The notes under the pieces were generated by a model that was given only the letters and a program-made list of their open reading frames with translations, was not told the DNA's origin and made no database searches. Below, in pieces: positions 36,013 through 45,106 of a stretch of 64,000 bases of DNA. Source of the DNA: a virus (Duplodnaviria > Caudoviricetes); the IMG/VR virus record IMGVR_UViG_3300026094_000002. One strand, written 5' to 3'. Made by a program: the position numbers and the translations under genes. Within the stretch, counting starts at the first letter, position 1. Each line of letters starts with the position of its first letter.

Positions 36013-36660
36013 TTAACGGACTAAGCAATTATTTTTTATAATTTCATAGTCTCGCTTGTATGTATTCTGTATTGCATTACGAAGATTATTATCTTTTTGA
36101 ACACGTTCAGTAAAAAACTGTTTTAGTTCTTTTTGTTGTTGGTCATCTTCGCTTTTGTTAAAATCAACGTCAGGTGGGATGGGATATACTAAATTTAACT
36201 CTTGTTTCAAATATTGTTCAAAATTATTTCCAATATACATATATTTTCTTTTAGCATCGGGTAAAATGTTTTCAAAAAAACAGTGCTGGGGCCATACGTG
36301 ATCATCAAATATATCTAAATTATCTTTTATAATTTTTTCTGTTAAATCTGTATATTTTATTTTAAATTCTCCAAAACCTTCTGGATCATCAGATTCTAAA
36401 ATATTTCCTTTTATATATTGTGAAATACCTGAAATCCATCTATCAAGTGGGTCTCGCATTACAATTATAATTTCATTAACATTATTCCAATCAATTACAC
36501 ATCTTCCTACTGTTGTTGATGTCCACCCAGACAAGAACATCCAAGAAGTAATAAAACTACTAGCACTTTTTGGAATGTTAATATAAAATTGTGTCGCATC
36601 TGGAGATATGAATCCACTGCCATACCCAAAATCTCTACGCTCAATATAAAAATCTAACAT
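36013..36660 (-). CDS. Sulfotransferase (Sulfotransfer_2-like)
   Basis: 5'-PSB motif INIPKSASS, 3'-PB motif RDPLDRWIS, H..PQ and Y..D. Confidence 0.8.
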   Translation of the reverse strand: MLDFYIERRDFGYGSGFISPDATQFYINIPKSASSFITSWMFLSGWTSTTVGRCVIDWNNVNEIIIVMRDPLDRWISGISQYIKGNILESDDPEGFGEFKIKYTDLTEKIIKDNLDIFDDHVWPQHCFFENILPDAKRKYMYIGNNFEQYLKQELNLVYPIPPDVDFNKSEDDQQQKELKQFFTERVQKDNNLRNAIQNTYKRDYEIIKNNCLVR

Positions 36661-37391
36661 TATTGTGTATATGCTGGCAGAATATAGTTGTATTCTGCAA
36701 TACCAGAATTTACAGTGATTTGTGCAACTCCACTATCACTAATACGCATAGTCTTGTCGCCAACCAAATCTAATATACTAATTACTTGTTTTACTTTATA
36801 AAGCCAGCGTCCTTTAAGATTGCCAGTGACCCCGGGATGAAAAACAAATTCACCTGCGTGAGTACTACGGTCACCAAACAGAAACTTTAAATTTCCAGAG
36901 TCTGTAGCGACTTGAAAATTTGGTTCTTCCGAGTTGGCTTGTGCTTGCATTTTGAGACGCTGAATACCAGCCATCGTTGGTTCAAATTCCACGTCCCAAT
37001 TTGCACCTTTGAACTTAGGCGTTTTTAGTTTCTCTGCAATAACCTCTTGTGCCATGAAACGATAATCGTTTTTAAAGTCACCAATCGCATTTTCAAAGTG
37101 AATTCCGACTGGAACGCTCTCGCCATTGCGATTCTGATGACTAACCTCTATATTAGCGTTGTCACGATACTCAGATAGGTTAAGCAAAATCTTTAGTTTT
37201 GCGAGGTTTGGCATACCAAATGTTCCCTGAAACTCGCTCATAGGCTGTGAATATTTTGCATCCACAACAACAGACCTATCTTCAGCAACTGCACTAATAG
37301 TGGTATCACTTGCTGAGCCTGTGATTTTAACAAGGTCAATGCAGCCAAGGTCGTATGTATGTTGTACTAGATCTAATAATTGATCTCTCAT
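36660..37391 (-). CDS. Putative DNA sliding clamp (gp45-like processivity factor)
   Basis: 243 aa with a repeated beta-alpha pattern, ends YILPA; adjacent to the polymerase genes. Inferred from size, pattern and context. Confidence 0.55.
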   Translation of the reverse strand: MRDQLLDLVQHTYDLGCIDLVKITGSASDTTISAVAEDRSVVVDAKYSQPMSEFQGTFGMPNLAKLKILLNLSEYRDNANIEVSHQNRNGESVPVGIHFENAIGDFKNDYRFMAQEVIAEKLKTPKFKGANWDVEFEPTMAGIQRLKMQAQANSEEPNFQVATDSGNLKFLFGDRSTHAGEFVFHPGVTGNLKGRWLYKVKQVISILDLVGDKTMRISDSGVAQITVNSGIAEYNYILPAYTQ

Positions 37392-37405: not shown

Positions 37406-38365
37406 TTAATTGTTTTTGTGGTTTTGTTTAATCCGAGCCAGTGGTTGACCGCCTCTTAGTGAATTTAGTACCCCCGGTCGACGCACCTCAATCCATGACA
37501 GCGTTCCGTTAGAAGTGACATTGTCAATAATTTCAAATCCAATGGTTTTTGCGATTTCTTTTACTTCATTTCCCGGCGTATAACAGTCATAGTTATGCTC
37601 ACTGTTCCTAGCCCCTTCAGGAAAGTCGCAGTTGTTAAATGTAAATATAAACATTCCGCCATCTTTGAGTAATGAAAAAACTTCGTTAAGGTATCGTTTA
37701 ATTGTTCCTAATGATTTTTGATTAAAAAATTCTGTTGCGACTATCAACCCAAATTGATTATCAGGAAACTGTTCAAATATGGGTTTATCTATATCTGATA
37801 TTGTTTTAAATCTCAACCGTGAACGGTAGTGTTCATTAAAAGTCTTTTTAATAGGTTCAAGCAACTCTTGGTGTATATCTACCAAATATAGTGGGTCTAA
37901 GTCAACTATATTTCTTGTCCATGTTCCGTTGCCCGGTCTTATGTGCATACCGGGATATTCCCAGTTACTATATATTTTACATCTTTCAATGAATAAAGAT
38001 TTTGTAAATTCGTGGTGTGTTTTTTCTCTGTCAGAAATCTTCTTTAATATTTGTTCTGGTGAATCTGTATTAGATGCTTGGTCTAATTTAACGCTCATTT
38101 CCCTAAGTTCGCCATCACAGTCTCGTATAAGAGAGTCAATATTTTTGATATATTCATCAAGTGCATCTACTGAGTCGCTTGATTTACTTTGTATATCAGT
38201 GAGTGTTGCATTTAAATTAGAGTTATCAATTTTGGTTTTTGATTTAACAAAATCTATATATGATTTAAATTTTTCAATGCTGTCGGAAAACTCTCTGACA
38301 GAAATTTGCCATTTAGTGTCAAGCAATAAGTTTTTTAAATTGATTAATTCACTGACTTTTTCCAT
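37406..38365 (-). CDS. Class I SAM-dependent methyltransferase with N-terminal coiled coil
   Basis: PGMHIRPG, LYLVD, FPDNQFG and LLKDGGMFIF motifs. Confidence 0.7.
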   Translation of the reverse strand: MEKVSELINLKNLLLDTKWQISVREFSDSIEKFKSYIDFVKSKTKIDNSNLNATLTDIQSKSSDSVDALDEYIKNIDSLIRDCDGELREMSVKLDQASNTDSPEQILKKISDREKTHHEFTKSLFIERCKIYSNWEYPGMHIRPGNGTWTRNIVDLDPLYLVDIHQELLEPIKKTFNEHYRSRLRFKTISDIDKPIFEQFPDNQFGLIVATEFFNQKSLGTIKRYLNEVFSLLKDGGMFIFTFNNCDFPEGARNSEHNYDCYTPGNEVKEIAKTIGFEIIDNVTSNGTLSWIEVRRPGVLNSLRGGQPLARIKQNHKNN

Positions 38366-39351
38366 TAGAATTCAAACATATCCTGAAATGTATTTTCTGT
38401 GTTTGTGGTACTAGACAAATCCCACTCTAGAACACCCAGTAAGTTGTCTAGTTTTTTATCAATAACTGTTGCTTCCATATCAGCATCATCAAACGGCAAT
38501 TCTTTGAACCAGTCAGGCAACCTTGACTCATCTGTTGGATATGCAATAGAAGTCCATCCAAGTGCGTTGGTCTTTAATTTACAAACAATAACCTTCATAC
38601 CGTCCATGATACTCATACTGTAATTGTCTGAATTCATCTTTTTCATATCGTTCCAGTTCATTGCAGCACGAACATGACCCGGCATATTTGTCTTTCCATT
38701 ACGCTTCTCACGCTGACTGTACATAGTCAGGTTATTAACACGCTTGGGTGAACCTTTTTCCCAGCCCGGTCGCTGTGTAAACTCTTTCTTGAAATCACGA
38801 ATTCTCTCAATGACTTCTTCTGTTGTTGCTGCATCTAGAACTGTAGCAAGTACTTCACTTAAAAAGTCTTGTATCACCTTGGGCGTGTCTGACCTTTTAA
38901 GATCCAAACCCATTGGTTTTACCTTGCCCGGCTTACCATTTTTATCAAGTCGCTTGCCTTCATTGTCTACCACCATGACTGCATACCGTTTCTTTTTAAT
39001 AAACAATCCACGAGAAGCGACAATTTCACGAGCACACTTTATAAGTTGCCCCATATGGCGAGGACTGTGGAATGCTTGTTCCATAAATGCAGGGAAACTG
39101 CTGCTTACTTGATCAGCAATGCCATCATAAAGTTGGATAACAGTTTCTTTATCCCAAGACATCTCGCCAGATTCAACTTCGTTTTTAACCATCGGCCATG
39201 CTGTAAAATAACAACTATCAGTATTATGTAAAAGTACGTCATTGCCGAAGAAAAATGGATCACCATTCGCAATGCTTATATCATAAACATATTCTTCGTC
39301 GTTACTTTTAATCTCTTCAATGGATTTTATTTTTTCTCGTACTATATTCAT
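38365..39351 (-). CDS. DNA polymerase B, C-terminal part, fused to split-intein C fragment
   Basis: 43-aa IntC ending LLHN, then TDSCYF, KKKRYA and KPMGLDLKRSDTP (PolB palm/thumb). Confidence 0.93.
   Translation of the reverse strand: MNIVREKIKSIEEIKSNDEEYVYDISIANGDPFFFGNDVLLHNTDSCYFTAWPMVKNEVESGEMSWDKETVIQLYDGIADQVSSSFPAFMEQAFHSPRHMGQLIKCAREIVASRGLFIKKKRYAVMVVDNEGKRLDKNGKPGKVKPMGLDLKRSDTPKVIQDFLSEVLATVLDAATTEEVIERIRDFKKEFTQRPGWEKGSPKRVNNLTMYSQREKRNGKTNMPGHVRAAMNWNDMKKMNSDNYSMSIMDGMKVIVCKLKTNALGWTSIAYPTDESRLPDWFKELPFDDADMEATVIDKKLDNLLGVLEWDLSSTTNTENTFQDMFEF
39223..39351 (-). mobile_element. Split intein C fragment (IntC, 43 aa)
   Basis: Block F YVYDISI and block G FFGNDVLLHN, followed by Thr+1. 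Confidence 0.92.
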
Positions 39352-39361
39352 GTGTACTAGC

Positions 39362-40465
39362 CTAATTACCAGTTATTTTATTTAAATATTGTGTGTTTTT
39401 TGCTTTTCTGGTGCGTATATCTGAGTTACAAGAGCATATGCTATGAGGACAGGTGATCGTTTTATCAGGCCATCTTATATCGAAGTCAGATATGCGTCCA
39501 ATAGGACCACCAGCATAACAGAATCCTCTGTATATAAATCCATCATAATTTATATAAATACAATCAATACCAATGTAACAATGCCACCCCATAAAATTTG
39601 CCAAACCATTGCTCAATAATACAAGAGAATTTTTTTCTTCTGTGTGTGATTTGTAATGTACCCGTGTATCTTGCCATTCCTTCAAACTTTGATATTTTTC
39701 TATTATTTTTAATTCTTCTTTTGTATAATATTCTTTTATTTTTTTATTTGACGATTTTAATCTATGTAAATTTTTGTAAACGTTAGTTTTTATATCAAAA
39801 TATTTCTTTTTTTCTTTATATTGTTTTCTAGATATTTTTTTCTCACGGTCAGGGTCAATTTCAGGCAGATTGATTTTGTTGATAGTAAAATTTATTTGTT
39901 TTTCATTGAAAAATTTAACAATATCAGGAATATTTTTAACTTTTCCTGCTGCAGCCATTACATTGACATTTATAAACATAGATGTATTATTGTTAATATA
40001 AACTATTTTTTCTATAGTTTTTTCTATAATTTCTTCAGATTCTTCTATGTGTAAGCTAATTGTCATATTGGATAAATATCTACTAGCCTCTAAGTATGTG
40101 CCCAACTCTGCACTTCCATTAGTGACTACTCCAATTGAATATGTATTATTTTTGCTATCAATATATTTTAGTACATCTAAAAAGTCAGGATGAATGAATG
40201 GTTCACCGCCCGTAAAATCTATTTTAAATTTTTTGTCATTTAATATCGTCCAATGACTTATACTATCTATGGTTTTTTTAATATCTTCTATTGGTAAGTG
40301 TGGGCTAAATGAATCATGGGACCATGAAGGACAATATGAGCAATCATAATTACATCGTTTCCCAATCATCCAACTGACTGTTAAAACTTTTGGATCTTTA
40401 TTTTTGGCATGTTCTGGGCTTTCAAGAGAACTTATAGAAACAATATTATTAAGTTGAACTGACAT
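39362..40465 (-). CDS. Radical SAM protein with C-terminal twitch/SPASM-like Cys cluster, located between the polymerase halves
   Basis: CNYDCSYC, FTGGEPF, VVTNGS and C-terminal CYIG...C...CPHSICSC; TAAGTA motif 6 nt upstream. Confidence 0.9.
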   Translation of the reverse strand: MSVQLNNIVSISSLESPEHAKNKDPKVLTVSWMIGKRCNYDCSYCPSWSHDSFSPHLPIEDIKKTIDSISHWTILNDKKFKIDFTGGEPFIHPDFLDVLKYIDSKNNTYSIGVVTNGSAELGTYLEASRYLSNMTISLHIEESEEIIEKTIEKIVYINNNTSMFINVNVMAAAGKVKNIPDIVKFFNEKQINFTINKINLPEIDPDREKKISRKQYKEKKKYFDIKTNVYKNLHRLKSSNKKIKEYYTKEELKIIEKYQSLKEWQDTRVHYKSHTEEKNSLVLLSNGLANFMGWHCYIGIDCIYINYDGFIYRGFCYAGGPIGRISDFDIRWPDKTITCPHSICSCNSDIRTRKAKNTQYLNKITGN

Positions 40466-40507
40466 ACAAAATACTTAGTTTTTTAAAAAATAGAATTTTT
40501 ATTCTTT

Positions 40508-42685
40508 TTAATTTTTTTCATCTGTGTATGTTATAAGATAGTCATCAGTTTTCAATTCTAAGGGAGAAACTTCTAGTGTAAATCCATCTCGATCAATTAT
40601 TAAACTATGGTCTTCAGTAACAATTATTTCTTTTCCAGTTTCACTAGTCACTTTATATTTTTTCTTTTTTGTTTCATGCCTCATGACATAAGATATTTTA
40701 CGCCATACCGCCTGATCATCGTGACTATTGTAACCCAAGACTTCATAAGAATCATAATCAGAAGTGGGGATAGCATATTCCTTATTTCCATCTTGAATTA
40801 CTTTATATGAAATTTGATTAAATAATTTCTCTATAGGAATAGAGCTACCATCGGAAATTTTAATTAGTGTATCGCCAGTGACACTATCTCCGTATATTAT
40901 TGCATCACCAATATGGTCATATTCTCCAGTAATACACTCATTGGTATAGGCATCCATATGCTTGGCAATTGATCTTCCTGTCAGTGTCGTAGATTGTCCA
41001 ATACGCTTATCAAAAAATCTACATCCCGGGTTTAGAATGGCACCATAGAGAGAGTTAAGATTAATCTTCTTAACCAACTGTCGCTTATCCCAATATTCAG
41101 TATCAGCTTCTGTGTTGGCCTCACCTAATTTTTTCTGTAACTCTTTTCTTTCTGCATACCATCTCTGCAAAAGACCGGGTATAACGCCATCAAACTCATA
41201 TGTAAAAATGGTTCCATTGGCACTTAATGCCCATGGTTTGTTTGAATCAAAAATTAACTTCCAAATTTCTGCAGCACTATATGTTTCTGATTCACCTGAC
41301 TCCCAGTCAATAGTAATTTCGGTTCCTATTTCTTGATCCATAACTGCAGTATATTCTAAGGTAGCAAAAAGTCCCTCCCATGCAGCAGCAAATCCCATTC
41401 CTTTTTCCATGCGACTTTTTATTAATTGGTCAGTCATAATAGGACGAAGTTGACCTGCGATTGTTTCTGGACCCATGTTCAACGCCCGAATGACTGATGG
41501 GTACAGACTGTTAATATCAACAGAACCAATCCAATCATGCATTCCACGCTTCGGGTGTGCCACATATGCACCAGCGGCTTGCATTTCTTCAGTAGATAAA
41601 TCTTTTTTACGGTTGGGAACTACTAGTCCCCTTTCATGTGCTTCGTTAATAATTGCCTGTTCTGTAACGGCAACAGCACCCATTGTAGTAGGTAGAAGAA
41701 CAGTGTTTTCGTGTGCTAGTTTGTTTGCAAGATCTAAGAATCTTAACTTTTTGTCAATCTGTGCAAGGCCACGAACATCCTGTCTATTATATTCAATGAA
41801 TGTTTCAAAGTTTTGATTATATAGTTGATCAAGAGTCCCTTCATATACAGTTTTGGAGCCAAGATCTTCGTAATCCAATATGGCATCAAGACTGTAACTA
41901 TGCCTTTCTTCGTATGTGTATTTCCGATACAACTGCATATAGTCCATATGCACCCGACCAACAAGGTCAAATGTAACTTGTTCAGCACCGAACCTTTCAA
42001 ACTCTCTTTGCTTTGGCAATTGATCCCATAGACATAGTTTTCGCGTATCATCTTTGCTTAGGACTTTTGTTATACGAAGGACAGTGTATGGAATATCATA
42101 TCCCTCTGAGTTCCACCCAGAGAGAACATCGGCATCTTGAATAACTTCTAAAAACGCCTCAAGTAAATCTTCTTCACGCTCAAACATAAACGTGTCGTCA
42201 AACTTATCACCGATTTCTGTTGCAGTCTCCATACTCATATGCTTTGGTGGCATAGCAAACGTTACCAATCTGTCTAGCCAGTCTAGGTAAACGGTAATGG
42301 CAGTGATAGGCGTGAATGGATCGTCTGGACGCGAGTAACCCCGCTCGGGATCAAAATCAACCTCAATGTCAAAAAATGCAGTATGAAGAGTTGGTGCTTC
42401 AGCGTTTAAATAATTATCTGCTAAACACCGAAACACAGGGTTAATATCAGCCTCATACAACTGTTTTCCAGCGTGTGAGTTTTGCTCTCTTCTAAATTCT
42501 TTATTGCTTTTTGTGCTGAATCGGCTTACAGGAGTGCCGTAAATGCTACGGAACTTTCCTTTTGGGTCATCATAGTAAAACACATAAGAGGCTGGATATT
42601 CTGTATAATATCTTTCATTACCTTCTCTGCCGACTACGTGAATGCGATCTCGTTTACGATCAAATAAACAATCAATATAAGACAT
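40508..42685 (-). CDS. DNA polymerase B, N-terminal part (3'-5' exonuclease plus palm/fingers), fused to split-intein N fragment
   Basis: FFDIEVD, GWNSEGYD, YSLD, YNRQD, SVDINSLYPS and KINLNSLYG motifs; ...IIYGD is followed by the intein. Confidence 0.95.
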   Translation of the reverse strand: MSYIDCLFDRKRDRIHVVGREGNERYYTEYPASYVFYYDDPKGKFRSIYGTPVSRFSTKSNKEFRREQNSHAGKQLYEADINPVFRCLADNYLNAEAPTLHTAFFDIEVDFDPERGYSRPDDPFTPITAITVYLDWLDRLVTFAMPPKHMSMETATEIGDKFDDTFMFEREEDLLEAFLEVIQDADVLSGWNSEGYDIPYTVLRITKVLSKDDTRKLCLWDQLPKQREFERFGAEQVTFDLVGRVHMDYMQLYRKYTYEERHSYSLDAILDYEDLGSKTVYEGTLDQLYNQNFETFIEYNRQDVRGLAQIDKKLRFLDLANKLAHENTVLLPTTMGAVAVTEQAIINEAHERGLVVPNRKKDLSTEEMQAAGAYVAHPKRGMHDWIGSVDINSLYPSVIRALNMGPETIAGQLRPIMTDQLIKSRMEKGMGFAAAWEGLFATLEYTAVMDQEIGTEITIDWESGESETYSAAEIWKLIFDSNKPWALSANGTIFTYEFDGVIPGLLQRWYAERKELQKKLGEANTEADTEYWDKRQLVKKINLNSLYGAILNPGCRFFDKRIGQSTTLTGRSIAKHMDAYTNECITGEYDHIGDAIIYGDSVTGDTLIKISDGSSIPIEKLFNQISYKVIQDGNKEYAIPTSDYDSYEVLGYNSHDDQAVWRKISYVMRHETKKKKYKVTSETGKEIIVTEDHSLIIDRDGFTLEVSPLELKTDDYLITYTDEKN
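40511..40885 (-). mobile_element. Split intein N fragment (IntN, 125 aa)
   Basis: Block A SVTGDT directly after YGD; block B IVTEDHS (TxxH); ends at the stop codon; no endonuclease domain. Confidence 0.92.
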
Positions 42686-43443: not shown

Positions 43444-43929
43444 TTAATCTGTTGCTTTACTGGTGGTCAAATAGACTTTTATTTTGGGTTCTGGCTTAGA
43501 TTTTTCTTTTGCATTTTGTTTAATTTTGGTTGCCATTTTTTCTGCACGATTCATTGCAATAGGTGAAAAATCTGATTCACCGGGAATAACTTTCCACACT
43601 TTGCCATTTATTTCTATAGCAACATTTTTTGGTTTGCCACGCATTTGGGAAGCCTCGTTCATCCCACGCTGGGATTTAAGTTGGTCTAACTCTTGTTGAA
43701 TGCGATCAATTGTTTGCTCAGCAGTTTCATTTTCTTGACTTAATCGTGATATGTCACGGCGATCCATTTTCTGACTTCTGTCAAAGTCATATAATAAGGC
43801 TTCAAGATCATTTTGAGCACCGGGATTTCTAACCCGCAATTGGCGAAGAATACGCTCCATACGATCAGATGTTGCTACACCAGTCGCTGGACTTTTTTCT
43901 TCGTCTTCAAAAAGGTCTTGTATATTCAT
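43444..43929 (-). CDS. Hypothetical protein, possible internal head protein
   Basis: N-terminus MNIQDLFE; internal MNE|A site; charged coiled coil. Confidence 0.6.
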   Translation of the reverse strand: MNIQDLFEDEEKSPATGVATSDRMERILRQLRVRNPGAQNDLEALLYDFDRSQKMDRRDISRLSQENETAEQTIDRIQQELDQLKSQRGMNEASQMRGKPKNVAIEINGKVWKVIPGESDFSPIAMNRAEKMATKIKQNAKEKSKPEPKIKVYLTTSKATD

Positions 43930-45106
43930 ACTTGTGTTCTTTGATTGTGGTATTTAGTTTTCTTTTTCTTCCAAATGTACTCTTTTTTGAAGACGAGTAA
44001 ATTTTTTTGTATTCGTAATTTTGAGGACAAAATTTACATTGTGGAATGTGATTTTTTAAATTGCCAACAAACTCTGATAGTTGTTCATCTGTCATATCAA
44101 TGTGTCCCACTGGGGCTGTATAAATTAATTCTCTATCTTTTTCTGACAAATCTAAATTAAATTGTTTATCAAATTCACTAAAAATTACTGAGGTTCCACA
44201 CTTGTTTAGTTTTCCATTTATGAAGTGATGAGAATGTTTGGTGTGGCAAATTTCATGTGCTTTTACTGGATCGCTGTCATGTAGTGTAAAACTATTTGTT
44301 TCCGGCTTAATTTTTAATGCTCCTTGATGAAAAAAATCTTCTAAGCAAATTTTTACTTTGACGTGGTTTTTATCAATTATTAAATATTCAGTCTGGTGAT
44401 GCTTTTCTTCATCTACATTAAAATCATATCGCTCTGTTGCTTCTTTTTTAAATCTTTCTTCAAGATTGTTCCATTCATTCATTGATGTGATTTTTGATAC
44501 CCATTCTTTACTTGGCTTTATTTGTTGGTAACGATCATTAATGCTTTTCCAAAAATAAAATGTTTTTACTAAAAACTCTAATTCATGATGAAACATTTTA
44601 TTTAATTCAGGCAATCCAGAGCAAATATCATTTGTATGAGTTAATTTTGGGAGAAAATCATATGCGGGTGTTTGAAAGATTTTAACTGGATGATGCAAAA
44701 ATGAAAGAACTGTTTCTAATATGTGATCACGACGATCTACATTATGCAGTCCAATGCTAACATTTGTTTTGTTTTCTAATAAAGTTTTATACAGTTCTTG
44801 GTTAAATTTTTTTTCATAGCTTCCATTAGTCACCAGCGTTGCATTATTAGTTTCTCCCCATAGATGTCTAATTCCCGAAATCCATTCAAGTAGGTCTGGG
44901 TTGCTCATTGGCTCACCACCTAAAATATAATAATCATTAAATTTTAGTCTTTTTGACCACTTTTCGTAAATGTCTTTATAATCACTCCATCGTTGATGAC
45001 CAGTAAATGCATAATTGTTGAACCTATTACAGCCTTCACAATTAAAATTACAGGTATGCGTTATATAAAACTCTACATAGTCAATGAATTCTCTATTATC
45101 AGACAT
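43907..45106 (-). CDS. Radical SAM protein
   Basis: ITHTCNFNCEGC, LGGEP, LVTNG and C-terminal CH...KC...CKFC motifs. Confidence 0.88.
   Translation of the reverse strand: MSDNREFIDYVEFYITHTCNFNCEGCNRFNNYAFTGHQRWSDYKDIYEKWSKRLKFNDYYILGGEPMSNPDLLEWISGIRHLWGETNNATLVTNGSYEKKFNQELYKTLLENKTNVSIGLHNVDRRDHILETVLSFLHHPVKIFQTPAYDFLPKLTHTNDICSGLPELNKMFHHELEFLVKTFYFWKSINDRYQQIKPSKEWVSKITSMNEWNNLEERFKKEATERYDFNVDEEKHHQTEYLIIDKNHVKVKICLEDFFHQGALKIKPETNSFTLHDSDPVKAHEICHTKHSHHFINGKLNKCGTSVIFSEFDKQFNLDLSEKDRELIYTAPVGHIDMTDEQLSEFVGNLKNHIPQCKFCPQNYEYKKIYSSSKKSTFGRKRKLNTTIKEHKYEYTRPF

Follow-up and report, generated by a model that had tools for sequence, protein, structure and literature searches.

How a phage might obtain an active replicative DNA polymerase from a gene that is broken inside its catalytic motif is the question raised by a locus on IMGVR_UViG_3300026094_000002, an IMG/VR record of a virus (Duplodnaviria; Caudoviricetes) of which a stretch of 64,000 nucleotides (nt) was analysed, here called the window and numbered from its first letter. 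In this locus a family B DNA polymerase (PolB) is encoded by two open reading frames (ORFs), PolB-N and PolB-C, the first ending and the second beginning with part of an intein (IntN and IntC, respectively), and the 1.1-kb gap between them holds one complete gene for a radical S-adenosylmethionine (SAM) protein. We consider it very probable, from the sequence and its homologues, that the locus contains a class-1 intein (Ser1/Thr+1), naturally split and free of cysteine, set between YGD and TDS in motif C of a T4-gp43-like PolB, and that its halves rebuild the polymerase by protein trans-splicing. The window is part of a 194.5-kb viral record with an estimated completeness of 56%, which implies that its source is an uncultured jumbo phage.

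A polymerase gene broken inside motif C

Every gene of the polymerase region lies on the minus strand. PolB-N (40508..42685, 725 amino acids) runs to ...GDAIIYGD and then continues as SVTGDTLIK...TYTDEKN before its stop codon, whilst PolB-C (38365..39351, 328 amino acids) begins MNIVREK...YVYDISIANGDPFFFGNDVLLHN and then reads TDSCYF, the C-terminus of IntC being GNDVLLHN with the TDSCYF... of the C-extein next to it. A reading of this DNA made from the sequence alone, hereafter the sequence-only reading, had described ...IIYGD followed by a 125-residue IntN, and a 43-residue IntC followed by TDSCYF, and had put the joined product at about 885 residues (600 + 285); both the ORF coordinates and the extein lengths proved exact, with a joined sequence of 885 amino acids in which the junction IIYGDTDSCYF forms motif C. 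The features of the locus, in the direction of the genes, are as follows.

40886..42685, minus strand: PolB N-extein, 600 amino acids, with the FDIE exonuclease motif, DINSLYPS (motif A), KINLNSLYG (motif B) and ..IIYGD (first half of motif C)
40508..40885 (coding 40511..40885), minus strand: IntN, 125 amino acids and stop, with Ser1 in SVTGDT (block A), NX motif MRHE and block B IVTEDHS
40466..40507, minus strand: A/T-rich spacer of 42 nt from the IntN stop to the radical SAM start, in which a weak AGAAT/ATTCT hairpin precedes a T-run
39362..40465, minus strand: radical SAM gene, 367 amino acids, with CNYDCSYC (CX3CX2C) and C-terminal C296, C316, C339 and C344
39352..39361, minus strand: spacer of 10 nt from the radical SAM stop (TAG) to the PolB-C ATG, also 10 nt in a second lineage (L039)
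39223..39351, minus strand: IntC, 43 amino acids, with block F YVYDIS, block G GNDVLLHN, penultimate His and terminal Asn
38365..39222, minus strand: PolB C-extein, 285 amino acids and stop, from Thr+1 of TDSCYF (second half of motif C) into the thumb domain

Both polymerase halves match the Pfam families DNA_pol_B and Intein_splicing, and PolB-N gives E-values of 1.3e-15 for PF03104 and 1.4e-25 for PF00136. The exteins have the exonuclease domain and motifs A and B of a T4 gp43-like family B polymerase, motif C becoming whole only once they are joined, and the polymerase shares ~50% identity with its counterparts in Pseudomonas phage PA5oct and Sinorhizobium phage Phosso. The two halves of the host gene, each carrying its part of the intein, are adjacent on the same strand, as in a fractured gene, and no intein other than that of PolB was found in the 194-kb record.

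Intein-less alleles and the reality of the break

The insertion is precise and in frame when set against intein-less alleles of the same host gene. An unsplit allele, which the sequence-only reading had proposed to look for among relatives, exists in two forms, the first being an uninterrupted pol gene in 14 IMG/VR relatives, in which tblastn matches to residue 600 of the N-extein and residue 1 of the C-extein abut to the base. Identity of the N-extein to these uninterrupted polymerases is 58-79%, with the match stopping exactly at residue 600, and the C-extein match in intein-less relatives begins exactly at residue 1; cultured relatives without an intein read IVYADTDSSYF (Phosso) and IAYNDTDSAYF (Atu_ph07) across the same position. 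The second form comes from a lake-water metagenome of another study, in which contigs jump from 39222 to 40887 with a net loss of 1663 nt. This loss corresponds to IntN with its stop, a spacer, the radical SAM gene, the other spacer and IntC, and therefore an empty-site allele exists in relatives at least 90% identical to the window.

Misassembly of the break, which the sequence-only reading had itself raised, is excluded because contigs from several studies carry the arrangement. Since the window belongs to a viral contig assembled from a metagenome, and the record is incomplete as noted above, an assembly artefact or a decaying pseudogene, the polymerase being in truth contiguous or dead, was weighed as an alternative, and we give it practically no chance. 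The order PolB-N, radical SAM gene, PolB-C was recovered in contigs from two separate runs that are 100% identical (L022 and L023; Logan contigs), the radical SAM gene and the IntC-PolB-C reading frame are bridged by contigs of two further studies with differences of ~1-2%, and a diverged lineage (L039-L041) has the same architecture, in which an IntN tail is followed by a radical SAM gene with just 67% identity to that of the window, a 10-nt spacer and IntC-TDSCYF. Moreover, all ORFs are intact and the motifs of both polymerase and intein are conserved.

In two lake and aquatic metagenomes, contig depth summed across the pol exteins exceeded that of the radical SAM gene tens to hundreds of times, and empty-site contigs had depths of 22-32 against ~6 for the contig bearing the radical SAM gene. 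The allele with both intein and radical SAM gene thus seems to be a minority among close relatives in those metagenomes, contig depth being a poor measure of this.

Competence of the intein halves and the proposed splicing reaction

In order to assess whether the two intein parts retain what splicing requires, IntN was aligned with eight others (those of KP13-7, PA5oct, SCTP-2 and five metagenomic loci) and IntC was compared within 50 metagenomic C-halves, proteins of 327-330 amino acids that span all of PolB-C including IntC. The N-terminal nucleophile is Ser1 in IIYGD^SVTGD (^ marks the splice junction here and the insertion site below), and Ser1-Val2 is invariant in the nine IntN sequences. 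So are the T, D, H and S of T-x-D-H-S in block B (the N3 TxxH motif, IVTEDHS in the window) and the Arg-His of the NX motif (YVMRHE), a motif (Arg/Lys-His) specific to Ser1 oxyester inteins according to Mootz and co-workers (PMC10189870). At the other end, block G reads VLLHN^TDS, and all 50 C-halves keep YVYD, His-Asn and a hydroxyl residue at +1, which is Thr in 45 and Ser in five. Neither IntN nor IntC of the window contains a cysteine. IntN ends at the canonical homing-endonuclease split site, and its best match among Protein Data Bank sequences (phmmer) is 9HTH, the Aes123 PolB1 intein (E 2.8e-13), followed by PI-PkoII, an archaeal PolB intein (E 1.4e-5). The Aes123 PolB1 intein, from the PolB genes of T4-like phages that infect Aeromonas, is itself naturally split (120 + 39 amino acids) and has been shown to trans-splice in vitro (PMC11923092).

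Structure prediction of IntN (with 10 extein residues) together with IntC (with 12) gave a complex score of 0.76, whilst the best of three controls reached 0.07; a score of 0.76 is attained by 51 of 78 solved complexes and by two of 108 mismatched pairs. Runs agreed in at least 89% of contacts and the partner pLDDT (predicted local distance difference test) was at least 69. Because split-intein complexes have already been solved, this predicted association shows likeness to them rather than binding.

The steps proposed here follow established class-1 intein chemistry and the experimentally studied homologues. PolB-N, the radical SAM gene and PolB-C would probably share one transcript, as the spacers are short and the scan gave no terminator-like site on their strand. 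After translation, IntN (125 amino acids) and IntC (43 amino acids) would join into one HINT fold, Ser1 would undergo an N-O acyl shift to a linear ester, and the ester would be handed to Thr+1, which takes over the N-extein. Cyclisation of the terminal Asn, and then an O-N shift, would leave a peptide bond, the product being an 885-residue (~100 kDa) polymerase with an intact YGDTDS. Polymerase activity should require splicing because YGD and TDS lie on separate chains and the catalytic centre would keep a 168-residue HINT domain unless it were removed, and replication should accordingly depend on splicing.

The intein halves could instead serve as a non-covalent dimerisation module, holding together a two-chain polymerase that functions without splicing. 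Such an arrangement has precedents, since family B polymerases split without an intein exist (gp43A/B of Aes123 and the first split in PTm1; discussed in PMC2677866). Here, however, the break lies within motif C, YGD^TDS, where the 168-residue HINT domain would occupy the catalytic centre, and the conservation of Ser1, the NX His, TxxH, His-Asn and Thr+1 in ~60 homologues would be unexpected if binding alone were at stake; the homologous PolB inteins of Aes123, CP21 and LCGC14, moreover, do splice. We regard a spliceless dimer as extremely unlikely.

Trans-splicing, with restoration of YGDTDS as the sequence-only reading had put forward, is by comparison strongly supported by homology, and the junctions, the conserved residues, the splicing homologues and the predicted complex all agree with it. 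Some points do weigh against it. Scored separately, the halves reach 34.7 (IntN) and 22.3 (IntC) with Intein_splicing (PF14890), below the gathering cut-off of 35.8, as is expected for halves. Natural split inteins differ widely in efficiency, wild-type Aes123 reaching only ~30% in vitro (PMC11923092), and Ser1 combined with Thr+1 is less well characterised in split inteins than Ser1 with Ser+1. Co-transcription is proposed from the spacing and the absent terminator call. Finally, trans-splicing activity has been demonstrated only in the homologues Aes123, CP21, LCGC14 and GOM-OPS-1, and splicing of the window's own PolB is what we infer.

Known split polymerase inteins

The high novelty implied by the sequence-only reading did not survive comparison with known phages. 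The split PolB arrangement is already known, and the window departs from it in its Thr+1 site and in a gap gene that is not a nuclease. By tblastn the IntN family was found in 49 phage records, Campylobacter CP21-like phages and Lak megaphages among them. In GenBank the halves are annotated 'intein-containing split DNA polymerase precursor', and the gene that they enclose 'putative VSR endonuclease', in the Aeromonas phages Aes123, Aes508 and AS-gz, and the Tenacibaculum phages PTm1 and PTm5 are annotated in the same way. The split PolB intein of MIJ3/PA5oct has been published (Imam et al. 2019; PMC6892783) and the CP21 PolB1 split intein has been characterised (PMC12707363).

The best-studied counterpart, Aes123 PolB1 (gp43B1 / VSR endonuclease / gp43B2; structure 9HTH; T4-like phages of Aeromonas salmonicida), is likewise a split cysteine-less Ser1 intein in motif C of a gp43-type PolB, divided at the homing-endonuclease position (120 + 39 compared with 125 + 43 amino acids), with the NX His and ~32-38% identity to that of the window. 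It differs in its site, two residues downstream (YIDTD^S with Ser+1, as against YGD^TDS with Thr+1), in its gap, which holds a Vsr-like homing endonuclease gene where the window has the radical SAM gene, and in its host, a Tequatrovirus of ~160 kb rather than a jumbo phage. MIJ3/PA5oct (Pseudomonas) is closer in its polymerase, being a jumbo-phage PolB and the closest cultured extein relative (~52% identity), with IntN and IntC of the same intein family on adjacent genes of the same strand. Its site, however, is YGDTD^S (Ser+1), its IntC has an 85-residue N-terminal extension, and its gap contains a 560-residue HNH-type homing endonuclease gene (phrog_559, E 1e-117). The split intein of Klebsiella phage KP13-7 and the intein of Salicola phage SCTP-2 share with the window YGD^TDS, Ser1/Thr+1 and a start with SVTGD..., whilst KP13-7 has a 325-residue Vsr-like endonuclease ORF (phrog_22677) in the gap and SCTP-2 has a contiguous mini-intein that ends Lys-Asn instead of His-Asn.

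More distant likenesses are found in the 'fractured genes' defined by Dassa et al. (2009), in which a replication gene is broken inside an intein and the halves are adjacent and co-oriented (PMC2677866). The window lacks the free-standing endonuclease that defines them, having an unrelated enzyme gene instead; the model in that paper predicts later loss of the endonuclease gene, and family B polymerase is outside its eight fractured enzyme types. Nanoarchaeum equitans Neq Pol and archaeal PolB inteins such as PI-PkoII are also cysteine-less Ser1 inteins of family B polymerases, Neq Pol being the first natural cysteine-less split intein (PMC10189870). Unlike the window they are archaeal and thermophilic, and the Neq halves are unlinked in the genome; similarity between the Neq IntC and the window was not significant (E 0.55).

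Thr+1 with YGD^TDS is shared by the window, KP13-7, SCTP-2 and 45 of the 50 metagenomic C-halves, whereas Ser+1 with Y-x-DTD^S is found in Aes123, PTm1, PA5oct and the other five. The PolB16 N-extein construct ends SGDTD and is followed by Ser+1, which is also the residue in the CP21, LCGC14 and GOM-OPS-1 inteins. All the characterised mesophilic PolB inteins considered here (Aes123, PolB16, CP21, LCGC14 and GOM-OPS-1) thus have Ser+1. Naturally split inteins free of cysteine are rare and sought after in protein engineering (PMC10189870; PMC12707363); the clade described here offers dozens of natural Ser1/Thr+1 variants, the one in the window being devoid of cysteine. The locus also adds a further well-documented natural case of protein trans-splicing on which an essential replication enzyme can rely. 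It leaves the current understanding of inteins unchanged, and we rate its importance as moderate.

Two side observations concern the positions at which these polymerases are interrupted. The Ser+1 C-halves (P0132, P0177, P0197, P0212 and P0237) and the other 45, together with L001, L037 and L038, form homologous subfamilies whose sites are two residues apart, and both subfamilies occur in polymerases of one metagenomic clade, which may reflect either intein 'sliding' or independent invasion. Several phages also have an additional PolB break upstream of motif C at which no intein is annotated: Agrobacterium phage Atu_ph07 (L005) has two PolB coding sequences of 565 and 417 amino acids, 18 nt apart, Aes123 (L037) has the gp43A/gp43B1 break, and PTm1 (L038) has two unrelated ORFs inside its first break.

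A radical SAM gene in the gap

The gap gene goes unmentioned in the sequence-only reading. Its product carries the motif CNYDCSYC and scores 42.5 bits with PF04055, against a cut-off of 29.5. C38, C42 and C45 are invariant in 43 homologues, and the four C-terminal cysteines are invariant too. The family is large, a protein search having returned at least 249 full-length homologues of ~365 amino acids with 33-68% identity, on phage contigs that include T4-like ones; a pattern search of IMG/VR with the same protein found no relative. Its AlphaFold model has a pLDDT of 87 and a fold matching radical SAM enzymes at a probability of 1.0, the nearest solved folds in Foldseek being BlsE, anSME, MoaA, viperin and SkfB with TM-scores of 0.4-0.5. 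On its sequence and predicted fold the protein is a SPASM/twitch-type radical SAM enzyme. More specific identities were rejected, since the NCBIfam models viperin_w_prok (54 bits, cut-off 180) and MoaA (50 bits, cut-off 284) score far too low, as does twitch.

Pfam, NCBIfam, PHROGs and the fold all assign the gap ORF to radical SAM proteins, and no nuclease features were seen in it. Nor does the window's gap contain a remnant of a homing endonuclease detectable by tblastn with the Vsr-like endonuclease of its relatives (E above 7), and no convincing direct repeats surround its radical SAM gene. A recent duplication of the phage's other radical SAM genes was considered and rejected: those elsewhere in the record match the gap gene with E-values of 3e-8 and 2e-4, with likeness in the core motif only, and identity to the 399-residue neighbour is 28% over 128 residues. 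A literature search found no paper combining 'split intein' with 'radical SAM', which is not proof against publication elsewhere.

In the relatives nearest by PolB-C (L024/25 and L042; 90% amino acid identity), a homologous radical SAM gene stands directly downstream of pol and not inside it. In L024 a 51-nt direct repeat (642-692 and 1859-1909; 94% identical) lies on both sides of that gene and is composed of 31 nt from the 3' end of pol, the TAATG overlap and the opening codons of the gene that follows; the radical SAM ORF itself starts with codons (MKKVSD) taken from the methyltransferase-like gene. This repeat looks like the scar of a cassette insertion. With its position downstream of pol in relatives and its flanking repeat, the radical SAM gene thus behaves as a movable accessory cassette.

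Gap content in relatives and the history of the locus

Among the relatives compared, a radical SAM gene in the gap is confined to the window and L039-41. Others (L027 and L032/33) have in its place an intact Vsr-like endonuclease ORF of 318-319 amino acids (phrog_22677; 4069-5025 in L032) that is 33% identical (E 1e-40) to the VSR endonuclease of Aes123. One further group keeps just an 83-residue C-terminal endonuclease remnant in the gap: in L028 (4634-5000), L029 and a contig of ERZ1426580 only the last ~77-83 residues remain, with 36% identity to L032 (E 3e-14), and this ORF appears to be a decaying endonuclease, the truncation resting mainly on the ERZ1426580 gene map as L028 and L029 have a run of N in the gap. 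The halves are separated by only 36 nt in L007 and by 1 nt in L030/31. The intein most like that of the window is in L032, which has the endonuclease in its gap (IntN 68% and IntC 67% identical, compared with 48-53% and 55-60% for other metagenomic split alleles), though its exteins are not the closest to those of the window.

Taken together, related alleles span the life cycle of a fractured gene, from the empty site, the contiguous mini-intein and the split intein with a Vsr-like or HNH endonuclease to the endonuclease remnant, the abutting halves and the gap re-used by an unrelated enzyme gene. The locus would derive from a fractured gene, made up of a split intein and a free-standing Vsr-like endonuclease gene that close relatives have kept, and in the lineage of the window the endonuclease gene would have gone and a radical SAM accessory gene would have come to occupy the gap. 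The radical SAM gene is most likely a passenger, co-expressed with an essential gene and sheltered by it. This history is held back by two considerations, namely that the steps could have been either endonuclease loss followed by radical SAM gain or a direct replacement, and that identity to the four closest radical SAM alleles is about the same (64-67%) wherever the gene lies, so that these alleles give no order of events.

A bolder, and in our judgement rather unlikely, possibility is that the split-intein gap acts as a protected cargo slot, in which the radical SAM gene has replaced the lost endonuclease gene. Simple deletion could not purge a gene placed there because essential coding sequence lies on both sides, and the Vsr-like endonuclease of a co-infecting relative would cut intein-less alleles, so that the radical SAM gene would be copied along, hitch-hiking on homing in trans. 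In a stronger version, the 10-nt spacing would couple translation of PolB-C to that of the radical SAM ORF and so tie maturation of the polymerase to the cargo.

Expression of the two halves

The sequence-only reading had suggested a post-translational switch set by how much of each half is made, or when, and the split would then be a regulatory device by which expression of the halves, or of the radical SAM gene, gates polymerase maturation. The ribosome-binding context of PolB-C is weak and its start lies 10 nt past the radical SAM stop in both lineages with that gene, and translation of the inserted gene and of PolB-C could therefore be linked; IntN also contains a sigma-70-like match (10/12; 40582-40555). 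Such promoter-like matches are, however, no more frequent than chance would give, with 43 found against 38.7 expected in shuffles, and the T4 late-promoter box TATAAATA occurs four times in the window against 7.5 expected, with none on the gene strand in the locus. The scanned region has no terminator-like site on the minus strand and a single one on the other, and the 42-nt spacer (40466..40507) has neither a clear Shine-Dalgarno sequence nor a terminator in the terminator scan. The genes are co-oriented and 42 and 10 nt from their neighbours, whilst in close relatives the halves abut (1 nt, 36 nt) or flank an endonuclease gene, and many relatives have no intein. The split is thus variable and dispensable among relatives, as expected of a selfish element, and we hold a regulatory switch to be unsupported and very unlikely. 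The arrangement resembles what is left of such an element, in which a split intein was combined with a homing endonuclease, rather than a regulatory device.

Neighbouring genes

Three further genes near pol, all on the minus strand, encode a second radical SAM protein (43907-45106, 399 amino acids; PF04055, 33.4 bits), a class I methyltransferase-like protein (37406-38365, 319 amino acids) and a sulfotransferase-like protein (36013-36660, 215 amino acids; PF03567). Accessory genes around pol vary among relatives, the methyltransferase being only 52% identical where PolB-C is 90% identical. Downstream of the pol cluster, 36660-37391 (minus strand) encodes a protein of 243 amino acids with phrog_12062 as its sole match (E 7.5e-30), in a position kept in relatives. 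It may be a sliding clamp, because Phosso has a gene annotated as such at about the equivalent place.

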